Below are positions 6,895-54,563 of a DNA stretch of 64,000 nt, piece by piece; within the stretch, counting starts at the first letter, position 1, and every line of letters starts with the position of its first letter. A program made the translations under genes and the position numbers. This stretch comes from a virus (Duplodnaviria > Heunggongvirae > Uroviricota > Caudoviricetes). The notes below the pieces were generated by a model. The model saw only the letters and a list, made by a program, of their open reading frames with translations, did not search any database and had not been told where the DNA came from. The stretch is taken from IMG/VR virus record IMGVR_UViG_2778261375_000003; one strand, 5' to 3'.

Positions 6895-7289
6895 AATTAT
6901 CTCCATTTTTACAAATGAATTTTGTCGATGCGGTGCCTGGTGCCTCCAGGTGACGTTAACCAGTTAACAATTAACGCCGGATAATCCACCCATAACACTG
7001 ATGCTTTTAACTGTTCCGCGTGCGCTTAGCCGCATTCACCGCATCACAAAATTCACTTTAAAAAGGGGCGGCAGGGCAGCCACGGAGTAGAACTGATGCC
7101 GCCAAAGACTAGACACAGCAATGTCGTTATTTACAACCGGAGGCGCACTCCCACCATTTAAATTTAACAGACAAGACCGACTCTTTATGAATACCGGAAA
7201 TGCGCCTTCGTGTTGTGCGCCTGTCTTTTTACCACTTCAGGCTCGGTGGTATACTGGAGTTCTCACACAACCAGTAATAAGGTATTCCG

Positions 7290-7668: not shown

Positions 7669-7859
7669 CTTTTTTCCCCTTAACGCCGGGTGGCGGAACT
7701 AAAACCTACAGCGCCGTGCTGTTCTTGATATAAATATTAGTAACACGGATATTTTAAGTCAACAGTATGGCGTATGATATTTTTGATTTAGTAACTATGT
7801 AAATGTTTTTTCAAGGGAAAAATATTAGTTATACAGCTGATTTGCAGAAGTTATGGCAC

Positions 7860-7890
7860 AAAAAAACCGACTAAGACGTCGGTTTTTTTG
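7860..7890. terminator. Bidirectional terminator downstream of racR
   Basis: aaaaaaccgac-taag-acgtcggttttttt hairpin flanked by A-run and T-run. Confidence 0.6.
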
Positions 7891-7915
7891 TTGTGGATGG
7901 GGTAGTGAGTGGTGG

Positions 7916-8377
7916 CTACTGGTTACGTTTCTTTAGTGCCAGCATGTTCTCGAAGGCTTCCTCGTAGAGCTTGTTTAGTCCACGTAGCTGGTTAAGGAGT
8001 TTGGCTTTTTCTGACGCAGGTAGAATCTCGAAGAGGTTAAGTAACTCAGCCTGTTCTTCATTGACCAGCCTCCATCCTTTGCCTGAAAAGCTATCATCAT
8101 AAGTATCTGATGATCTTACATAATTCATTAAGTCTTTAAGGTCTTCTCGAATGTCCTCTGGTTTTACCTTTAACAGAGCCGCAAATTTTAGCGCAGCGTC
8201 GGTATTTACCGGTATCTTGCCGTTCAGATACTGGCTAACGGTGCCTTGAGATTCGAATCCCAACAACTCAGCCGCCAGCTCTTGAGTCAGCTTCAGCTCT
8301 TTTTTTCTTGCATTCCATGCGGCTTTTAAATTCTTGCTCGCTTCTGGAGTTGCAATCACTTCGCGTGTTTTTTTCAT
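7916..8377 (-). CDS. racR: RacR-like HTH repressor
   Basis: 153 aa with XRE-type HTH (LTQELAAELLGFESQGTVSQYLNGK); divergent from a Cro-like gene; position equals RacR in Rac. Confidence 0.7.
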   Translation of the reverse strand: MKKTREVIATPEASKNLKAAWNARKKELKLTQELAAELLGFESQGTVSQYLNGKIPVNTDAALKFAALLKVKPEDIREDLKDLMNYVRSSDTYDDSFSGKGWRLVNEEQAELLNLFEILPASEKAKLLNQLRGLNKLYEEAFENMLALKKRNQ

Positions 8378-8425
8378 ACATAGAGTTTATTTGTTTTACC
8401 AATATTATCAAAGATAGTCTGACTG

Positions 8426-8454
8426 TTGATCTTTAAAATTAGTGGAGCTAATAT
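8426..8454 (+). promoter_or_regulatory. Candidate pR-like promoter for ydaS-ydaT
   Basis: TTGATC, 17-bp spacer, TAATAT, about 25 nt upstream of ydaS ATG, in the racR/ydaS divergent region. Confidence 0.4.
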
Positions 8455-8478
8455 TTGCTCGAGGCATAACGTAGAAGG

Positions 8479-8760
8479 TTGGCTATGAACTTAAGAGACT
8501 ATTTAAAAGAGAAACATATCACCCAGTTACAGTTTGGGAAGCTAACGGGTTTATCTCAGGTGCATGTAAGTCGAGTGCTGGGGGGCTATGAAAGATTCAG
8601 CCCTGAAAAAGCATTACGTGTTGCTGAAGTAACGAATTTCGAGGTTACACCTCATGAACTCCGGCCTGATATCTACCCGAATCCGACCGATGGTTTACCT
8701 GTTGGATGTAAGGCTAACACACAAAATGCACAGGAGTTGATTCATGAAAATCAGGCATGA
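8479..8760 (+). CDS. ydaS: YdaS-like Cro-type HTH protein
   Basis: 93 aa, HTH (LTGLSQVHVSRVL), divergent from repressor. Confidence 0.7.
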   Translation: MAMNLRDYLKEKHITQLQFGKLTGLSQVHVSRVLGGYERFSPEKALRVAEVTNFEVTPHELRPDIYPNPTDGLPVGCKANTQNAQELIHENQA

Positions 8761-9166
8761 GCACATCGAATCAGTGTTGTTAGCCCTAGCCGCTGAAAAA
8801 GGGCAGGCGTGGGTCGCTAACGCAATTACTGAAGAATATCTGCGCCAGGGGGGCGGCGAATTGCCCCTGGTACCAGGCAAGGACTGGAATAATCAGCAGA
8901 ACATCTATCACCGTTGGTTAAAAGGTGAAACGGAAGCGCAAAGGGAAAAAATTCAGAAACTGATCCCTGCAATTCTGGCAATCCTTCCGCGCGGGCTGCG
9001 TCACCGACTCTGCATCTTCGATACCCTGGAACGCCGTGCATTACTGGCGGCGCAGGAAGCGTTGAGTACGGCAATTGATGCGCATGATGATGCAGTCCAG
9101 GCCGTTTACCGGAAAGCACATTTCAGCGGTGGTGGGTCGCCCGGCGATTCTGTCGTAGTGCATTGA
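8744..9166 (+). CDS. ydaT: YdaT-like protein
   Basis: 140 aa, overlaps ydaS 3' end; length and position match Rac YdaT. Confidence 0.7.
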   Translation: MKIRHEHIESVLLALAAEKGQAWVANAITEEYLRQGGGELPLVPGKDWNNQQNIYHRWLKGETEAQREKIQKLIPAILAILPRGLRHRLCIFDTLERRALLAAQEALSTAIDAHDDAVQAVYRKAHFSGGGSPGDSVVVH

Positions 9167-9210
9167 TTGAAATTAATCGTGCCGGATTGTTTTGTTCGGT
9201 ATCAGTTAAA

Positions 9211-9630
9211 TGTAACGCTGCGAGCGTTACAAGGTGAAAACAAATGGCTTCAAACTGGATAAAGCTCGAGGTTATTACGCCGGATAAGCCGGAAATATTC
9301 AGGCTTGCTGAGATTCTGAATATTGATCCAGATGCCGCATTAGGGAAGGTTATTCGCTTCTGGGCATGGGCGGATCAACAAATGATAGACGGTAATGCAG
9401 ATTGTAACGCTCGCGGCGTTACAAAAAGTGCAATAGATCGCATCACTTTTATGGCTGGTTTTGCTGATGCGTTAATTCAGGTTGGATGGCTGGTCGAAAA
9501 TGACGGTGGGCTTTCTCTACCTAACTTTGAACGTCATAACGGGAAAAGCTCTAAAAAACGGGCGGTTACAAACGAGCGAGTTACAAAAATACGCGAACTG
9601 AAACGAAAAGGTAACGCTGGCAGCGTTACA
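9211..9630. repeat. Three copies of a GTAACGC(N)GCGTTAC palindrome plus one degenerate copy
   Basis: Perfect palindromes at 9211-9231, 9403-9423, 9611-9630 and a degenerate gttaca...gttaca at about 9565-9585; first overlaps the ydaU RBS region, others lie inside ydaU. Confidence 0.8.
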
Positions 9631-14015: not shown

Positions 14016-14203
14016 AAACGGTTTGCGGGAAAAGGAGAGTTAAGTAGAATTGCAGCGGGTGCTTGAGGCTATCTGCCTCGGGCATGAACACCAACGGCAG
14101 ATAGATAAAAGCCCCACCCGACTATAAATCGAAGTGAGGCCCCTATATGCTCGTCACATATAGATTGCCTCTTACGGACCGAAAGGTCAAGGAGAAGCAG
14201 GCT

Positions 14204-14359
14204 ATGAAGCAGCAAAAGGCGATGTTAGTCGCCCTGATCGTCATCTGTTTAACCGTCATAGTGACGGCACTGGTAACGAGGAAAGACCTCTGCGAGGTAC
14301 GAATCCGAACCGGCCAGACGGAGGTCGCTGTCTTCGTAGACTACGAACCTGAGGAGTAA
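14204..14359 (+). CDS. hok: Hok/Gef-family type I toxin
   Basis: 51 aa MKQQKAMLVALIVICLTVIVTALVTRKDLCEVRIRTGQTEVAVFVDYEPEE, near-identical to recalled HokD/RelF; in-frame upstream ATG at 14147 could act as a mok-like leader. Confidence 0.9.
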   Translation: MKQQKAMLVALIVICLTVIVTALVTRKDLCEVRIRTGQTEVAVFVDYEPEE

Positions 14360-14450: not shown

Positions 14451-14637
14451 TTGTTTATTTTCGGTGAGCATGATGCATCTGGTTGTACTGATGTGGCTGG
14501 CTGATTCTGTTATTCAGGTGGCTTATTGCTGTTGATTGGTATGTCTTCACGGCTAGAATCGAGGCTCTTAAGTAGCGCGCAGGGAGAAGAGGGATGGACC
14601 CCGAAGGGGAAGAGCTATTTATCTGGAAGGATTCTGA

Positions 14638-14813
14638 AGATGAAAATCGAAGAATTGCGTGAAATTTTTAGTGAAAATGGCCTCTATGCTGTGCGCGTTG
14701 AGAATGGGAAAGTTGTCTACACAACGTTAATCCCTGATGATCATGTAATTTTATCTATCGAGGCATTCATTGAATACCTTGAAAGGCTCGGTTTCAAGGT
14801 GGTTCGCGAATGA
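14638..14813 (+). CDS. Hypothetical small protein
   Basis: 58-aa ORF from MKIEELREIF; start chosen at internal ATG. Confidence 0.4.
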
Positions 14814-16313: not shown

Positions 16314-16339
16314 CTCAATCTGTTATCCGGGGCTATATT
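16310..16339 (+). promoter_or_regulatory. Candidate late promoter pR'
   Basis: TTGACT (16310-16315), 18-bp spacer, TATATT (16334-16339), overlapping the Q stop codon. Confidence 0.4.
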
Positions 16340-16400
16340 CCTCACGCGCCAGCAAAATCTGGCGTCGGGATTGGCGTCCTGGATAGAGACCGCGACAGAT

Positions 16401-16422
16401 ACACGCCGCGAGCGTGTTTTTT
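16401..16422 (+). terminator. Candidate tR' terminator of a short pR' leader RNA
   Basis: acacgccgcgagcgtgt hairpin plus tttttt, about 75 nt downstream of the predicted pR' start. Confidence 0.5.
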
Positions 16423-16583
16423 ATTGTCGTATGCACGCGCACATCTGAATTATGGTGGGCTGTGTGGGGGCGGAGAGATCCGCGCCGGTCGGTTTCCCGG
16501 TTACGCCAACCCTGCACAGTTCACCACCAGATGATTGGCGTCGTCGGTGGTGAGTTATTAAGAAACCACCAGAGGGCGTCATT

Positions 16584-17195
16584 ATGACAACTCAAATTTC
16601 TGTTGAAACTCTCTCCCCGATCACCCATAACCAGATTCCTGTTATTACCACCGAACTTTTGGCGCAGCTTTACGGCACTGAGCCGGTGCGCATTCGCCAG
16701 AATCATCATGAGAACAAAGTACGCTTCGTTGAAGGGAAACACTTTTTCAAAGTTGTTGGTAATGACCTTAAAGAATTGCGGGTAGCTTTAAACTACTCAC
16801 AAAATTTGCGGGTTACTTTAAGTAACTCACAAAATTTGCAACCATCTTTAAGAGGGTTACAAATTTCCCCGAAAGCCCGCTCCCTCATCCTCTGGACAGA
16901 ACGCGGAGCAGCCCGTCATGCCAAAATGCTCGAAACCGATCAGGCGTGGGATGTGTTCGAAAAGCTGGAAGACTGCTATTTCAGACAAAAGGATCCGTCA
17001 GCGCCAGCTTCATGCCAGAAAAGTTACGACACGCGAGTTCTCTGTTATCAGCGAGGCGGTGTCACTGTTTCCACAATTCAGTTGCGGGATGATGATATTG
17101 TTATTTCCCTTGAGTCATGGCTGGAACTGGCGAGAGCCAATGGTTGGTTTGTTGTTCGCAGAGATAAACTGGTGGAAAGGCTGATGCAGCTTTAA
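16584..17195 (+). CDS. ORF6N-domain protein (antirepressor-like), with internal 30-bp tandem repeat
   Basis: N-terminus PVITTELLAQLYGTEPVRIRQNHHENKVRFVEGKHFFKV fits remembered ORF6N pattern; 30-bp unit repeated about 2.5 times at 16776-16865. Confidence 0.55.
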   Translation: MTTQISVETLSPITHNQIPVITTELLAQLYGTEPVRIRQNHHENKVRFVEGKHFFKVVGNDLKELRVALNYSQNLRVTLSNSQNLQPSLRGLQISPKARSLILWTERGAARHAKMLETDQAWDVFEKLEDCYFRQKDPSAPASCQKSYDTRVLCYQRGGVTVSTIQLRDDDIVISLESWLELARANGWFVVRRDKLVERLMQL

Positions 17196-29172: not shown

Positions 29173-30318
29173 ATGGCACAGGGCTTGCCTGTATCAAACG
29201 TTGTTAATGTTGATGTGATCATGTCGCCGCGTGCAGCATCAGGGCGAAATTTTGGTGCATTACTCATTCTCGGCCCGTCCACAATCATTCCGGTAAGTGA
29301 GCGCATTCGTCGTTATTCTGCCGCGGAAGATATTGGAAAAGATTTTGGCGTGGAATCACCAGAATATAAGGCTGCGCAGGTGTTTTTCTCACAATCACCG
29401 AAACCTCAGGAGGTTTTTGTTGGTCGTTGGGTGAAAACGAAGGGAGACAGCGAACAGGCCACGACTGAGACGCTGGAGCAGGCTGTGAATGCCATGCTCG
29501 ATTATACTTCATGGTATGGGTTGGGGATTGCAGACGATGCAGATATTCCGGATGCAGACTGGCTGAAAGTGGCTGCGGCGATCGAATCCTCTTCTGTAAG
29601 CCGTATTCTGGCGATTACGACAAGCGATGAGAAATGCCTGCAGACTGCATCCAGCGATGATTTGGCATCAAAACTGAAAACCGCCGGATATTCACGCAGT
29701 TTTATTCAGTATTCATCGGGTAATAAATACGCTGCGTTATCTGCATTTGGCCGGGCATTCACGGTTAATTTCAATGGCAGTAATACCGCGATTACGCTCA
29801 AGTTTAAGCAGGAGCCGGGTGTCGGGTATGAAACACTGACAGTCAGTCAGGCATCGGCACTTGATGCAAAAAACTGCAATGTGTTCGTGTACTACCAGAA
29901 TGATACAGCTATCCTCCAGCAGGGAGTGATGGCTAACGGCGATTTCTTTGATGAACGCCACGGCCTGGACTGGTTACAGAATTATGTGCAGACCAACCTC
30001 TATAACCTGCTTTATACCAGCACCACGAAAGTTCCCCAGACTGAAGCCGGTATTACCCGACTGTTATCAAATGTTGAAAAATCACTGGATCAAGCCGTTC
30101 AGAATGGACTGATTGCTCCGGGCGTATGGAACGGGGGCGACCTTGGCCAGTTGTCATCAGGTGACACGCTGCCCAAAGGTTATTACGTATACGCCCAGCC
30201 GCTGGATGAACAGGCACAATCAGAACGTGAAGCCCGTAAGGCTCCGGTGATTCAGGCTGCAATAAAACTTGCAGGCGCGGTTCATTACGCTGACGTACAG
30301 ATTAACGTTGTTCGCTAA
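29173..30318 (+). CDS. Tail sheath protein (contractile tail)
   Basis: 381 aa immediately upstream of tube, chaperone and tape measure genes. Confidence 0.6.
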
Positions 30319-37826: not shown

Positions 37827-38179
37827 TGCGATACAGACGTGAAGACGCCGATGGCGATTACACCTTTGGCAGCGGTGATGACACCTGGCTGATTAACTCA
37901 CCGGAGGCCGTGGCGCAGGCGGTAAAAACGCGATTCGAATTGTGGTATGGGCAATGGTTTCTCGACACCACCGAGGGGACTCCGTGGATCCAGTCCGTAC
38001 TCGGTAAGCAGAAGCCGGAAACCTACAACCTAGCGATCAGAAAACGCATTCTGGAAACGCAGGGCGTTAAATCAATCCTCTCTTTCAATACGACGGTGGA
38101 TACCACGACCCGACGTGTCATGTTTTCCGCTGAAATCGACACTCTCTATGGAATAACGACTGTTACATCGGAGGCGTAA
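37823..38179 (+). CDS. Baseplate protein (gpW-like)
   Basis: 118 aa, ATGA-coupled between spike and J-like gene. Confidence 0.55.
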   Translation: MMRYRREDADGDYTFGSGDDTWLINSPEAVAQAVKTRFELWYGQWFLDTTEGTPWIQSVLGKQKPETYNLAIRKRILETQGVKSILSFNTTVDTTTRRVMFSAEIDTLYGITTVTSEA

Positions 38180-39378
38180 TGGCTCTGAACCTTGATTCTC
38201 TCGGTTTATCTGCAAAGGTAACCGCGGAGGGGATCAGTGCGCCTGATTATCAGACGATACTCAGCACCCTGATTAGCTATTTTCAGCAGATTTATGGCAG
38301 TGATGCCTACCTCGAACCGGACAGCAAAGACGGCCAGATGGTGGCTCTGATGGCGCTGGCGATTCATGATGCCAATAATATGGCGATAACTGTCTACAAC
38401 TGTTTTTCACCGGCAACCGGCTATGGGGCTGCACTGACCAGTAACGTGAAAATAAATGGTATTTCACGTAAAGGCGCGACGAATTCTACGGTTGATTTGC
38501 TTCTTACAGGAACTGCCGGGGCAACCATCATTAATGGCAGCGTGAAAGACAGTAATAATGTGATATGGCGTTTGCCTGCTTCAGTGGTGGTCGGCGTGGA
38601 TGGTACAGTGATGGTGACCGCAACATGTTCCGTCAGTGGTGCAGTGGCGGCGCTGGCTGGAACTATCACTGAAATTAATACGCCAACCCGTGGCTGGATT
38701 TCGGTAACCAATCCTGCTGCAGCTACTGTAGGCACTCCAGCAGAAACTGATGCTGAGTTACGTATCCGCCAGTCGCAAAGTGTTGCGTTGCCATCAATAA
38801 CCCCATTTGAAGCACTGGATGGTGCTGTTTCTAATGTTGCCGGTGTAACCCGCCACAAACTCTATGAAAACGATACTGGTTCGGAGGACGGTAACGGGTT
38901 ACCGCCACACTCTGTTGCTGTAATTGTGGATGGTGGTGATGTGACGGATATTGCTCAGGCTATCAGAGGGAATAAAGGCCAGGGGACAGCCACTCACGGT
39001 ACAACATCCGTTACGGTTCTGGATAAATACGGCAATCCCCATGTAATCAAATTCTCGCGTTCCAGTGATGTACCTGTTTATGCCCGGATTAAATTAAAAG
39101 TTTTTACGGGTTATACCTCACAGATAGGGCAGCAGATCCAGCAGGCTATTTCCGACTATATCAATAGTCTGATGATTGGTGATTCGGTCCTTTTAAGTCG
39201 CATTTACTCACCGGCGAATCTTGGCGTGGTGAGTGGCGGGAATGCACGCTATTACGATATTCAGGAACTGACGATTGGGAAATCCCCGGGGGCTTTGTCG
39301 TCATCAAACATTGATATCAGATACAACGAATCTGCGTCCTGTACCCCGGAAAATATCGTTATAACGGTGGAGTCATGA
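38179..39378 (+). CDS. Baseplate J-like protein
   Basis: 399 aa in canonical position. Confidence 0.6.
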   Translation: MALNLDSLGLSAKVTAEGISAPDYQTILSTLISYFQQIYGSDAYLEPDSKDGQMVALMALAIHDANNMAITVYNCFSPATGYGAALTSNVKINGISRKGATNSTVDLLLTGTAGATIINGSVKDSNNVIWRLPASVVVGVDGTVMVTATCSVSGAVAALAGTITEINTPTRGWISVTNPAAATVGTPAETDAELRIRQSQSVALPSITPFEALDGAVSNVAGVTRHKLYENDTGSEDGNGLPPHSVAVIVDGGDVTDIAQAIRGNKGQGTATHGTTSVTVLDKYGNPHVIKFSRSSDVPVYARIKLKVFTGYTSQIGQQIQQAISDYINSLMIGDSVLLSRIYSPANLGVVSGGNARYYDIQELTIGKSPGALSSSNIDIRYNESASCTPENIVITVES

Positions 39379-53951: not shown

Positions 53952-54563
53952 CCCAGAAAAACAAAAACCGGCGAGAAGTTACCACGAGAACGGAAAGTAA
54001 ACAAGAATACTCCCATTGACTTATATCAATTAATCAACTTTTTATAAGCTATCCCTAACTTATTGTGTATAGCTGAAAAGTCAGAGACAAGTTCACCATC
54101 TGCATTATTTCTTAAGTTAATAGTTTATTGCTAACTTAATTTATGTATCGACTATTGATATCCATCTTAAAGTTACAATATCCCTCTGCATTATTTTTCA
54201 TCACAAATAATATATCTATTGCACTACACTCACCTGCTCTAATAAATTTGTATTTTTAAGTCACAAATGCTATCTTTTCGCATCATATTGACCTTTTAAT
54301 CGTTCAGGCTTATAGTTCCGCCGTCGTAGCAAATTCTGCGACCGGGTTTAGCAGCCTGAATGATTGTGCGGACAGCCGCAGATATCCGATATTGCGGTAT
54401 TTTTGTGTCCGTAAAACCGTGTTACGCCCAAATTATGGTGGGGCGTGATGGGGAGGCTTCGGCCTGCTGGTTTCACAATCGCCAGTCTGCTAACCCCGTC
54501 ACGTCCTGCCACCTGTTTAGCAGCGGGTAGCAGGTTGTTAAACCTGATTGTGAGGCCGTAACT

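Follow-up and report, generated by a model that had tools for sequence, protein, structure and literature searches.

A DicA-related repressor in a candidate CI/Cro/CII-type immunity region of a Rac-family prophage

Gene content of the locus and the surrounding prophage

The window analysed here is a single stretch of 64,000 nucleotides (64 kb) from a Caudoviricetes record (IMG/VR IMGVR_UViG_2778261375_000003), and all coordinates refer to it. Its gene content and order at ttcA match those of the Rac prophage, with intR, xisR, recET and kilR present. Three regulatory genes lie next to one another: an immunity repressor of 153 aa on the minus strand (7916–8377), a Cro-like helix-turn-helix (HTH) protein of 91 aa on the plus strand (8485–8760), and YdaT, 140 aa, also on the plus strand (8744–9166). 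The divergent arrangement of repressor and Cro-like gene, and the overlap of the latter with ydaT, confirm the layout described in a first-pass annotation of this DNA. The divergent intergenic region (8378–8484) spans 107 bp. The paaA2-parE2 toxin–antitoxin genes are absent from the window 3' of the repressor gene, and no similarity to YdfC was detected for a 72-aa ORF.

[quoted passage not shown] Given the break from 7703 to 8737, the repressor, the operators and cro would be the only parts replaced, and the gene for the CII-like YdaT appears to be the only part common to the K-12 Rac module and the window. Of 5426 complete E. coli genomes, 1641 match part of the region, and only about 40 of those have this immunity type. 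The closest described relative is Escherichia phage Rac-SA53 (KU052037), annotated with dicA, dicC and ydaT, which belongs to the same prophage family and has the same ttcA attachment site. Its repressor, already deposited as dicA, is 100% identical to ours, its YdaT 95% identical, and its intergenic region nearly identical; the replication module and the late region differ. A literature search found no experimental work on the Rac-SA53-type immunity module. When genome contigs were scanned with the repressor as query, E. albertii supplied the single close locus, and further relatives were gathered through contigs encoding homologues of the repressor.

The genes that follow the regulators cover lysis, packaging, head, sheath, tape measure, baseplate and fibres in full; terminase, portal, capsid and endolysin are among those present. 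The leftward operon comprises ydaG/ydaF-like genes (with a DUF1391 gene), a DicF-like RNA, the division inhibitor kilR, recET and onward. By gene content this E. coli prophage looks complete. It could alternatively be a decayed remnant in which an intact switch merely silences a cryptic element, as for Rac in K-12 or for Qin, and indeed most Rac-like elements of E. coli are defective; a stop-codon change that lengthens the cro-like ORF by nine codons (see below) could be the onset of decay. Against this stand the full set of structural and lysis genes, the intact state of all three regulators, which show 97–99% conservation across some 40 complete E. coli genomes, and the deposition of related Rac-like phages as phage genomes. 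We consider decay quite improbable.

The repressor combines similarities to lambda CI and to DicA

The repressor contains a Pfam HTH_3 match and can be divided into an N-terminal HTH domain resembling that of lambda CI (residues ~12–89) and a helical C-terminal domain resembling that of DicA (residues ~107–152). A sequence search of the PDB (phmmer) matched the N-terminal domain to lambda CI (3kz3/1lmb) with E values of 3e-4 to 9e-4. When the predicted structure was searched with Foldseek, the top ten hits were all of the lambda CI N-terminal domain, the entry 3kz3 giving a TM score of 0.85 and an rmsd of 1.3 Å, and Q32, Q44 and N52 of the repressor align with Q33, Q44 and N52 of lambda. Matches for the whole model were limited to this domain. 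The C-terminal domain is modelled with low confidence (pLDDT about 55–60), and its last 69 aa, searched by sequence against the PDB, found no match.

Profile alignment with hhalign relates the repressor almost end to end to Qin DicA (94.9% probability, E 4.7e-8, columns 24–153 against DicA 15–133), and BLASTP aligns the C-terminal 42 aa with DicA at 38% identity (E 8e-6). DicA (NF007257) is also the sole NCBIfam match, scoring 35.1 bits where the cut-off is 101; as the score falls below the curated threshold, the protein is a DicA relative, not a DicA orthologue. The helical C-terminal domain probably mediates dimerization. The first-pass annotation had taken this gene for racR, an identification that does not survive comparison with K-12 RacR (b1356): homology is undetectable by BLASTP (E=26) and by hhalign with the family alignment (1% probability). 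On these comparisons the repressor is a member of the DicA family and not of the RacR family.

The resemblance to lambda CI raises the possibility of a conventional SOS-inducible repressor, inactivated by RecA-stimulated self-cleavage. In addition to the lambda-like fold, the N-terminal domain is 50% identical to that of the CI of Stx2a phages, which bears an S24 domain, and more distant matches that share the N-terminal domain also contain PF00717. The repressor itself is only 153 aa long, the Pfam search found no S24 peptidase (PF00717) domain in it, and the alignment to DicA covers its C-terminal part; DicA itself lacks a cleavage site (PMC10448788). A self-cleaving CI is accordingly a very remote prospect.

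The Cro-like protein and YdaT

The Cro-like protein matches HTH_3 and, marginally, the Pfam family YdaS_toxin (PF15943; 30.9 bits, cut-off 30). Its identity to K-12 YdaS is 32% over 50 aa. It further matches PHROG 35 (E 2e-26) and PDB chains described as 'Cro' (8c7k and 8co2, E about 5e-3), and no similarity to DicC was detected. By these matches it is a distant member of the YdaS family, so that the earlier label of YdaS holds at the level of the family and not as a close relationship. The Cro-like protein and the 'dicC' product of Rac-SA53 are identical over 82 aa. The TAG stop codon of the latter is CAG in the window; the ORF is thereby extended by nine codons, from 82 to 91 aa, and overlaps ydaT by 17 nt (8744–8760), an overlap that is strain-specific.

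The label of YdaT is fully borne out, for this is truly a Rac protein: it is 94% identical to K-12 YdaT, matches the Pfam family YdaT_toxin (PF06254) at 40.6 bits (cut-off 21), and retains H56, R57 and W58, of which H56 and R57 are DNA-contact residues. Matches to PHROG 163 'CII-like activator' (E 9e-36) and to the PDB entries 3c4r and 8bt1 suggest a tetrameric transcription activator equivalent to CII. A predicted YdaT box, TTGATT-CATGAA-AATCAG (8737–8754), overlaps the ydaT start codon and differs by one mismatch from the TTGATT-N6-AATCAA box described for prophage CP-933P (PMC9986795). It coincides with the point at which K-12 Rac homology restarts (8738), and the K-12 box, ATGATTCATGAAAATCAA, has been footprinted at the same position (PMC11879457).

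A further conserved candidate YdaT box was observed at 2116–2133, about 50 nt upstream of xis-int. It is also present in K-12 Rac and is not mentioned in the study of K-12 YdaT (PMC11879457). The YdaT regulon may extend to the xis-int box, which would then be the counterpart of pI in this phage family.

Promoters and terminator

The rightward promoter candidate noted in the first-pass annotation, TTGATC-17-TAATAT, is found at 8426–8454 on the plus strand (TTGATC 8426–8431, TAATAT 8449–8454), and its start is predicted near 8461; the ATG at 8485 is preceded by a Shine-Dalgarno sequence, GAAGG. With 8 of 12 consensus positions it falls under the threshold of our promoter scan (9/12), which returned five promoter-like sites between 7650 and 9300 against 2.5 ± 1.5 in shuffled sequences, and the consensus match by itself is weak evidence. 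The element TTGAT(C/T)-17-TAATAT occupies the corresponding position in Rac-SA53, E. albertii, Enterobacter, Hafnia (two loci) and locus L012 and is missing there only from the Serratia locus; it is thus kept in six of seven related intergenic regions. Since hexamers and spacing have been maintained in DNA that has otherwise diverged, this pR-type promoter is more than a chance match.

On the minus strand, a candidate pRM-type promoter (TTGATA-16-TAAACT, 8384–8411; TTGATA 8411–8406, TAAACT 8389–8384; 9/12 in the scan) has a -10 hexamer that ends 6 nt upstream of the repressor ATG. A TAnAnT hexamer (TAAACT, TAAAAT or TAGAAT) precedes the ATG by exactly 6 nt in each of the five diverged loci, none of which has a Shine-Dalgarno sequence there. 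From the position of the -10, the repressor mRNA is predicted to be leaderless, starting at A8377; precedents for leaderless repressor mRNAs are cI and paaR2 (PMC8630535). The repressor transcription unit would end at an intrinsic terminator (7858–7891, minus strand; RNA fold -19.7 kcal/mol, z -7.1), none of 200 shuffles being equally stable. T runs flank the hairpin on both sides, and it may therefore act in both directions. Terminators composed of a hairpin and a T run, with different sequences, are found there in Enterobacter, Hafnia, Serratia and L012 as well.

Beyond the terminator, a candidate pL promoter (TTGACT-17-TAATAT, 7734–7762, minus strand; TTGACT 7762–7757, TAATAT 7739–7734; 9/12), with a start predicted at about 7727, has an equivalent in the Enterobacter relative, TTGACA-17-TAATAT. 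The ydaS gene of K-12 contains a reverse promoter that YdaT activates from a site about 190 bp away (PMC11879457). A search of L001 for the published hexamers of this promoter, PracR4, spaced by 16–18 nt gave no match, and the K-12 promoter could thus not be mapped onto the window. A relaxed scan of 8470–8800 gave a single minus-strand match, TTCCCA-16-TGaTATGTT (8513–8540), at a distance of about 205 bp to the YdaT box and within the cro-like gene, where coding constraint prevents a test of conservation. Its assignment as a pRE-like promoter is a low-confidence guess.

Candidate operators recur over pR, pRM and pL

A pseudo-palindromic motif of 21 bp, AATATTAG-N5-CTAATATT, would account for operators at pR, pRM and pL. 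The consensus has an 8-5-8 layout and was scored over its 16 arm positions in a scan of the 64 kb. The best site in the window is the candidate O_R1, AAAATTAG-TGGAG-CTAATATT (8435–8455; 15/16), and only one other site reaches at least 13/16, the candidate O_L1, AATATTAG-TAACA-CGGATATT (7733–7753; 14/16). Both lie in the immunity region, and both span the spacer and the -10 of their promoter with equal geometry. Comparison of the window with Rac-SA53 and E. albertii shows conserved arms of O_R1 around a variable centre of 5 nt, and all relatives have a site at the offset of O_R1. Rac-SA53, E. albertii, Enterobacter, Hafnia and Serratia each have an equivalent of O_L1 3' of their repressor gene, at an equal offset.

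A third, weaker candidate resembling O_R3, TTTATTTG-TTTTA-CCAATATT (8386–8406; 12/16), covers the spacer and part of the -10 of pRM. This site was left out when the consensus was derived and is one of seven sites of at least 12/16 in the 64 kb; Rac-SA53, E. albertii, Hafnia and Serratia likewise have a site of at least 12/16 placed 29 nt before the ATG. Overall, six relatives show operator sites at these same three offsets. In the Stx2a phage Lyz12581Vzw, whose CI has an N-terminal domain 50% identical to that of the repressor, both sites of at least 12/16 fall within the cI-cro intergenic region, and no sites of the 21-bp type were found in the control loci of Qin and K-12 Rac. The right arm includes the -10 hexamer TAATAT, and promoter function alone could explain part of its conservation.

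The word AAATATTAGY has three exact matches in the window, all in the immunity region (7820–7829, 7732–7741 and 8447–8456). The first of these, AAATATTAGT on the plus strand upstream of pL, is conserved in Enterobacter and may be an auxiliary operator half-site. A convincing middle operator (O_R2) was not found, the best candidates scoring 9–11/16. A 16-bp palindrome, GAGCTAATATTTGCTC (8445–8460), was also considered as an operator and was rejected because Rac-SA53, with an identical repressor, does not keep its outer arms.

A candidate antirepressor and the route of induction

About 6 kb from the switch, following hok/sok, the plus strand encodes a small protein of ~57 aa (14640–14813) that is 70% identical to Rem of Rac-SA53. 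Only its N-terminal 26 aa align with Rem of Qin, at 73% identity (E 1e-11), and no Pfam or NCBIfam model matches the protein. A leader of about 90 nt upstream of rem is conserved in the window, Rac-SA53 and Qin. In Qin, DicA and DicC form a bistable switch with Rem as antirepressor, and Rem derepresses the DicA-controlled dicBp 165-fold (PMC10448788).

The LexA box CTGT-N8-ACAG has no match in the window. The 20-mer LexA consensus, allowing three mismatches, gave a number of matches expected by chance, none near the regulators, and CTG-N10-CAG with an AT-rich centre was not found upstream of the repressor gene, rem or the ORF6N gene (16584–17195). These empty searches leave an SOS-controlled antirepressor unsupported. 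With a repressor that lacks S24 and a window that lacks a LexA box, induction would most likely proceed through a Rem-type antirepressor or by spontaneous flipping, and by analogy with Qin the Rem-like protein is the likely route.

A model for the immunity switch

Taken together, positions 7700–9166 are best read as the CI/Cro/CII-type immunity region of a full-length Rac-family prophage adjoining ttcA, with a probability that we put at roughly 0.8; the figure is a joint one for repressor, operators, counter-repressor, establishment by YdaT and induction route. The divergent pRM/pR pair and the same 21-bp motif over pR and pL together give, in silico, what appears to be a lambdoid layout. The immunity switch with a pR-like promoter proposed earlier is in this respect supported by the gene layout, the conserved pR and the candidate operators.

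In the proposed mechanism, the non-cleavable repressor would be made from a weak pRM-type promoter on a leaderless mRNA ending at its own terminator. Repressor dimers on the 21-bp pseudo-palindromes between the -35 and -10 of pR (O_R1) and pL (O_L1) would block RNA polymerase, silencing the rightward operon of cro-like ydaS, ydaT and the replication genes ydaU and ydaV, as well as the leftward operon from pL through the ydaG/ydaF-like genes, DicF-like RNA, kilR and recET. At the weaker O_R3-like site over pRM, the Cro-like YdaS protein or excess repressor could stop repressor synthesis, and the shut-off of pRM by the counter-repressor would make the switch bistable. By analogy with K-12 Rac and CP-933P, YdaT may bind the box over its own start codon and activate a leftward promoter, giving more repressor after infection. 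Induction would follow from the Rem-type antirepressor (14640–14813) or from spontaneous flipping, as for DicA, DicC and Rem in Qin. A narrower reading, of a complete contractile-tail Rac-family prophage with a RecA-uncleavable hybrid repressor (CI-type DNA-binding domain and DicA-type C-terminal domain), Rem-dependent induction and xis-int in the YdaT regulon, is offered tentatively and is rather doubtful as a whole.

The first-pass annotation had also suggested a toxin-control module, in which loss of the repressor is lethal through YdaS and YdaT. Taken further, the repressor would be a RacR orthologue mainly restraining these two proteins in a toxin–repressor or atypical toxin–antitoxin module, as in K-12 Rac. 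The Pfam names YdaS_toxin and YdaT_toxin favour such a module; so does the finding that silencing of racR in K-12 is lethal through ydaS/ydaT (PMC5700377, PMC5700373), and overexpression of K-12 YdaT leads to filamentation and death via rcsA (PMC11879457), results that probably apply to the 94%-identical protein of the window. The repressor is not homologous to RacR, however. It is divergent, has its own terminator and shares no operon with the supposed toxins, so that the co-transcription typical of type II toxin–antitoxin systems is not seen, and by homology YdaS and YdaT are DNA-binding regulators. Later work describes YdaS and YdaT as equivalents of Cro and CII, not toxins (PMC5917428, PMC8630535, PMC9986795), and YdaT of CP-933P is not toxic (PMC8630535, PMC5917428). 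A dedicated toxin module is therefore unlikely here, and a lambdoid immunity region remains the preferred reading. Lethality on loss of the repressor is still to be expected: because the prophage looks complete, repressor loss should cause induction, including that of KilR and the DicF-like RNA downstream of pL, and death should result from prophage induction and from several functions together; YdaS/YdaT would not be its specific cause.

Comparison with related immunity modules

Like RacR-YdaS-YdaT of K-12 Rac, the module occupies the same place in the prophage family, has a repressor divergent from an operon of cro-like and CII-like genes, places a YdaT box over the ydaT start codon and uses TAATAT as the rightward -10, besides sharing its YdaT. 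The two differ in their unrelated repressors, their distant YdaS proteins and the operator-like sites of the 21-bp type, which were not found in the K-12 locus; K-12 Rac is moreover a 23-kb remnant, whereas the element in the window looks complete. With DicA-DicC-Rem of Qin it has in common the homologous repressor without S24, the Rem-like gene after hok/sok and the content of the pL operon (DUF1391 gene, DicF-like RNA and division inhibitor). In contrast to Qin, the DicA score is far below the cut-off, the DNA-binding domain is nearer to CI of the lambda type and of Stx phages, no similarity to DicC was detected for the Cro-like protein, and a gene for the CII-like YdaT is present.

PaaR2-YdaS-YdaT of CP-933P (E. 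coli O157:H7) is similar in its short non-S24 repressor, leaderless mRNA (predicted here), intergenic region of about 100 bp and back-to-back promoters. In CP-933P, YdaS acts as Cro, and YdaT as CII via TTGATT-N6-AATCAA at the ydaS/ydaT junction (PMC8630535, PMC9986795). Unlike in CP-933P, whose operators are GTTTAGTAA repeats and differ from those predicted here, the repressor gene is not followed by paaA2-parE2. The divergent pRM/pR, the operators at pR and pL, the leaderless repressor mRNA and the CII-type establishment that we infer here resemble lambda cI-cro-cII, as does the fold of the N-terminal domain. Departures from lambda are the absence of S24/RecA cleavage, predicted operators of 21 bp compared with 17 bp, and the replacement of CII by the unrelated fold of YdaT.

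Implications for Rac-like elements

The labels 'toxin YdaS/YdaT' in Pfam and RefSeq invite a toxin–antitoxin reading that the context of the genes does not support. The main value of the present analysis is the correction of the RacR reading; the module is otherwise an ordinary control region for lysis and lysogeny. It joins three systems that have been studied separately, namely YdaT of Rac, a repressor and antirepressor of the DicA/Rem type known from Qin, and a DNA-binding domain of the lambda type, and concrete operator and promoter coordinates are supplied that can be tested. As about 40 of the 1641 matching genomes carry this immunity type, Rac-like elements exist in heteroimmune versions, and results obtained with RacR of K-12 are not transferable by gene position alone.

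Identity of the immunity region

The three open reading frames (ORFs) described in the first-pass annotation as a RacR-YdaS-YdaT switch lie in the window exactly where they had been placed. A 153 amino acid HTH_3 protein, the repressor, is encoded at 7916–8377 (minus strand), and 107 bp separate it from a divergent Cro-like HTH ORF (8485–8760, plus strand, 91 amino acids), which overlaps ydaT (8744–9166, plus strand, 140 amino acids) by 17 nt. The TAG stop codon of the Cro-like gene in Escherichia phage Rac-SA53 is replaced by CAG in the window (8725–8727) and by TCG in E. albertii; with CAG the ORF gains nine codons, which carry it across the YdaT box and past the start of ydaT. YdaT was correctly named, with 94% identity to the K-12 protein and retention of H56 and R57, the DNA-contact residues (PMC11879457). 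The product named YdaS is Cro-like, but its identity to K-12 YdaS is just 32% over 50 residues. The RacR label does not hold, as no similarity to K-12 RacR could be detected for the repressor (BLASTP E=26; 1% probability in profile comparison).

Residues 12–78 of the repressor are similar to the N-terminal domain of lambda CI (sequence search, E ~3e-4), and this domain accounts for all ten of the best Foldseek matches to an AlphaFold model with pLDDT of ~78–87 over residues 11–90. Residues 14–89 share 50% identity with the N-terminal domain of the S24-bearing CI of Stx2a phages, with a nearly identical recognition helix (QGTVSQYL versus QGAVSQLL in the Stx2a phage CI). No S24 peptidase domain was found in the 153 residues by domain search. 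Residues 111–152 share 38% identity with the C-terminal end of DicA from the cryptic prophage Qin; the repressor family profile aligns with DicA over almost the full length (94.9% probability), and DicA is the sole NCBIfam match, with a score far under the subfamily cut-off. An identical repressor is deposited in Rac-SA53 as dicA, with the Cro-like gene as dicC. Enterobacter, Hafnia and Serratia have homologues of 58–92% identity, all in the same repressor/Cro-like/YdaT arrangement with a 106-bp intergenic region.

An exchanged cassette in a Rac family prophage

The best E. coli match of the region (99.2% identity) is a prophage adjoining ttcA that carries intR, xisR, ralR, recT, recE, kilR, ydaF, ydaU and ydaV; judged by this neighbourhood and gene set, the region belongs to a Rac family prophage. 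Of 5426 complete E. coli genomes, 1641 match part of the query, and no more than 40 contain at least 80% of it. In alignment with K-12 Rac, DNA homology ends at 7702 and restarts at 8738, and therefore the repressor, operators and Cro-like gene have been exchanged as one cassette, in the classic manner of heteroimmune lambdoid mosaics. The YdaU-like replication initiator likewise has a different N-terminal half from that of K-12 YdaU, by replacement. Palindromes of the form GTAACGC-N5-GCGTTAC (~20–24 nt) are present at 9208–9231, 9400–9423 and 9607–9630, with a degenerate copy at ~9565–9590. They lie just 5' of and within the initiator gene, and probably serve as origin iterons that fit the exchanged domain of the initiator.

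The prophage appears complete, with an apparently full set of genes for a Q-like antiterminator, endolysin, terminase, portal, major head, tail sheath, tape measure, baseplate and fibres. A tail sheath and baseplate wedge are encoded in the late region (29173–30318, 38179–39378), which means a contractile, myovirus-type tail; the early region to which it is joined is of Rac/lambdoid type. Gathering scores were reached by the host SraC/RyeA-SdsR/RyeB small RNA pair (463–607), near the attachment site, and by the antitoxin RNAs RalA (2169–2347) and sok (14057–14206).

Candidate promoters and operators

We infer the promoters and operators of the immunity region from sequence. The TTGATC-17-TAATAT promoter proposed for the divergent region, a candidate rightward promoter (pR), is present on the plus strand at 8426–8431 and 8449–8454. 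It was read from the sequence, agreeing with the consensus at 8 of 12 positions, under the scan threshold, and the scan count in the region is little above that of shuffles. Six of seven related intergenic regions, otherwise diverged, retain TTGAT(C/T)-17-TAATAT at this position; weak by consensus alone, pR is made credible by this conservation. The promoter scan returned a candidate repressor promoter, pRM (TTGATA-16-TAAACT; 8411–8384, minus strand), which sets the -10 at exactly 6 nt from the repressor ATG. In all five diverged loci a TAnAnT hexamer occurs at this distance, and none of them has a usable Shine-Dalgarno upstream of the ATG. Together these predict a leaderless repressor mRNA, of the kind already demonstrated with lambda cI and with paaR2 from the E. 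coli O157:H7 prophage CP-933P (PMC8630535).

Downstream of the repressor gene is a strong terminator, and relatives have terminators of other sequence in the same place. Beyond it, the scan placed a candidate leftward promoter, pL (TTGACT-17-TAATAT; 7762–7734, minus strand). A conserved hairpin, ACAGC-ACGGC-GCTGT (7703–7725, minus strand), lies a few nt 3' of the pL -10, with similar 'ACGGCGCG/CTGTAGG' stretches at the same place in Hafnia, Serratia and the related locus L012; it could act as a leader element, of nut/boxB type or of another kind. Further along, between pL-proximal small ORFs and kilR, is a DicF-family small RNA (7066–7117, minus strand; 55 bits, gathering score 48), a placement that parallels the ydfABC-dicF-dicB operon of Qin.

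The 64 kb contain exactly three copies of the word AAATATTAGY, all flanking the repressor gene; the word extends to a 21-bp 8-5-8 pseudo-palindrome, AATATTAG-N5-CTAATATT. Only two window sites have at least 13 of 16 matches to this candidate operator consensus, 8435–8455 at pR and 7733–7753 at pL, and each begins 3 nt past the -35 and ends 1 nt past the -10. A third candidate (8386–8406, 12/16), over pRM, was left out of consensus building; the same search of the window gave no convincing middle operator. The consensus was derived from the window and hence was tested in other loci. Sites of at least 12/16 occur at the same offsets in Rac-SA53, E. albertii, Enterobacter, Hafnia, Serratia and L012, filling all three offsets in Rac-SA53, E. 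albertii and Hafnia and one or two in the others. Both such sites of the Stx2a phage fall within its cI-cro intergenic region, and none was found in the Qin and K-12 Rac loci. Where phages share the repressor exactly or nearly so, both arms are kept and the central 5 nt vary. A caveat is that the right arm includes the -10 hexamer.

YdaT sites

A YdaT box, TTGATT-CATGAA-AATCAG (8737–8754), overlaps the ydaT start codon. It is at the same position as the footprinted K-12 box ATGATTCATGAAAATCAA (PMC11879457) and equivalent to the CP-933P site TTGATT-N6-AATCAA (PMC9986795). In K-12, a reverse promoter within ydaS is activated from this box, raising racR expression (PMC11879457), and YdaT of CP-933P turns on a pRE-like promoter (PMC8630535). 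Our guess at a reverse promoter in the window is TTCCCA-16-TGaTATGTT (8540–8513), the sole minus-strand candidate in the Cro-like gene.

Three sites with at most one mismatch to the YdaT box consensus occur in the window, versus a mean of 0.145 in 200 shuffles. One of these, TTGATTTTTAATAATCAG (2116–2133, one mismatch), is found in the stretch separating xis from the RalR/RalA region, ~53 nt 5' of where the xis-like ORF starts. Both K-12 Rac and Rac-SA53 keep it; its coordinates elsewhere are 1704–1721 of locus L017 (K-12 Rac), 16175 of L015 and 3472 of L002. One possibility is a site of pI type that places xis-int under CII control; the K-12 YdaT paper makes no mention of xisR (PMC11879457).

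Induction and the consequence of repressor loss

No LexA box was found in the window. DicA works without RecA cleavage, forms a bistable switch with DicC and is antagonised by the small antirepressor Rem (PMC10448788). A gene for a Rem-like protein follows hok/sok (14640–14813, plus strand); its product shares 70% identity with Rac-SA53 Rem and, over the first 26 residues, 73% identity with Qin Rem. Given this precedent and gene, and the lack of S24 domain and LexA box, we propose that induction would proceed by Rem-type antirepression or by spontaneous flipping of the switch. The ~90-nt leader 5' of rem (~14550–14639), strongly conserved among the window, Rac-SA53 and Qin, likewise has no LexA box; it contains a hairpin-like stretch, GGGATGGnCCCC...GGGG.

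Just downstream of the Q-like antiterminator lies a C4 antisense RNA with a1/b1 targets and isrK (Rfam; 16333–16531), directly 5' of an ORF6N-domain protein (16584–17195) labelled 'anti-repressor' in PHROGs. The stretch is similar to the immI module of P1 and the IsrK/AnrP module of Gifsy-1, and could offer a second route to antirepression. A second C4 copy with a1/b1 targets (54310–54516) is outside the Rac-like prophage, a hint that the right-hand part of the window holds another mobile element.

The switch had also been read as probably serving, besides immunity, as a toxin-control module. Silencing of racR in K-12 is indeed lethal through ydaS/ydaT, with YdaT causing filamentation via rcsA (PMC5700377, PMC5700373, PMC11879457), and the closely similar window YdaT may well behave likewise. 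However, this reading is weakened by later work that challenges the toxin label and in which YdaS and YdaT act as counterparts of Cro and CII (PMC5917428, PMC8630535), by the seemingly complete lysis, packaging, head and tail genes, and by the control that candidate pL would exert over kilR and the DicF-like RNA. Because of these last two points, loss of the repressor should lead to induction and not to an effect specific to YdaS/YdaT. The observation of the first-pass annotation is thus confirmed and its interpretation partly supported: the region belongs to the lambdoid/Rac family of immunity switches, as a heteroimmune member that is uncharacterised yet already deposited.
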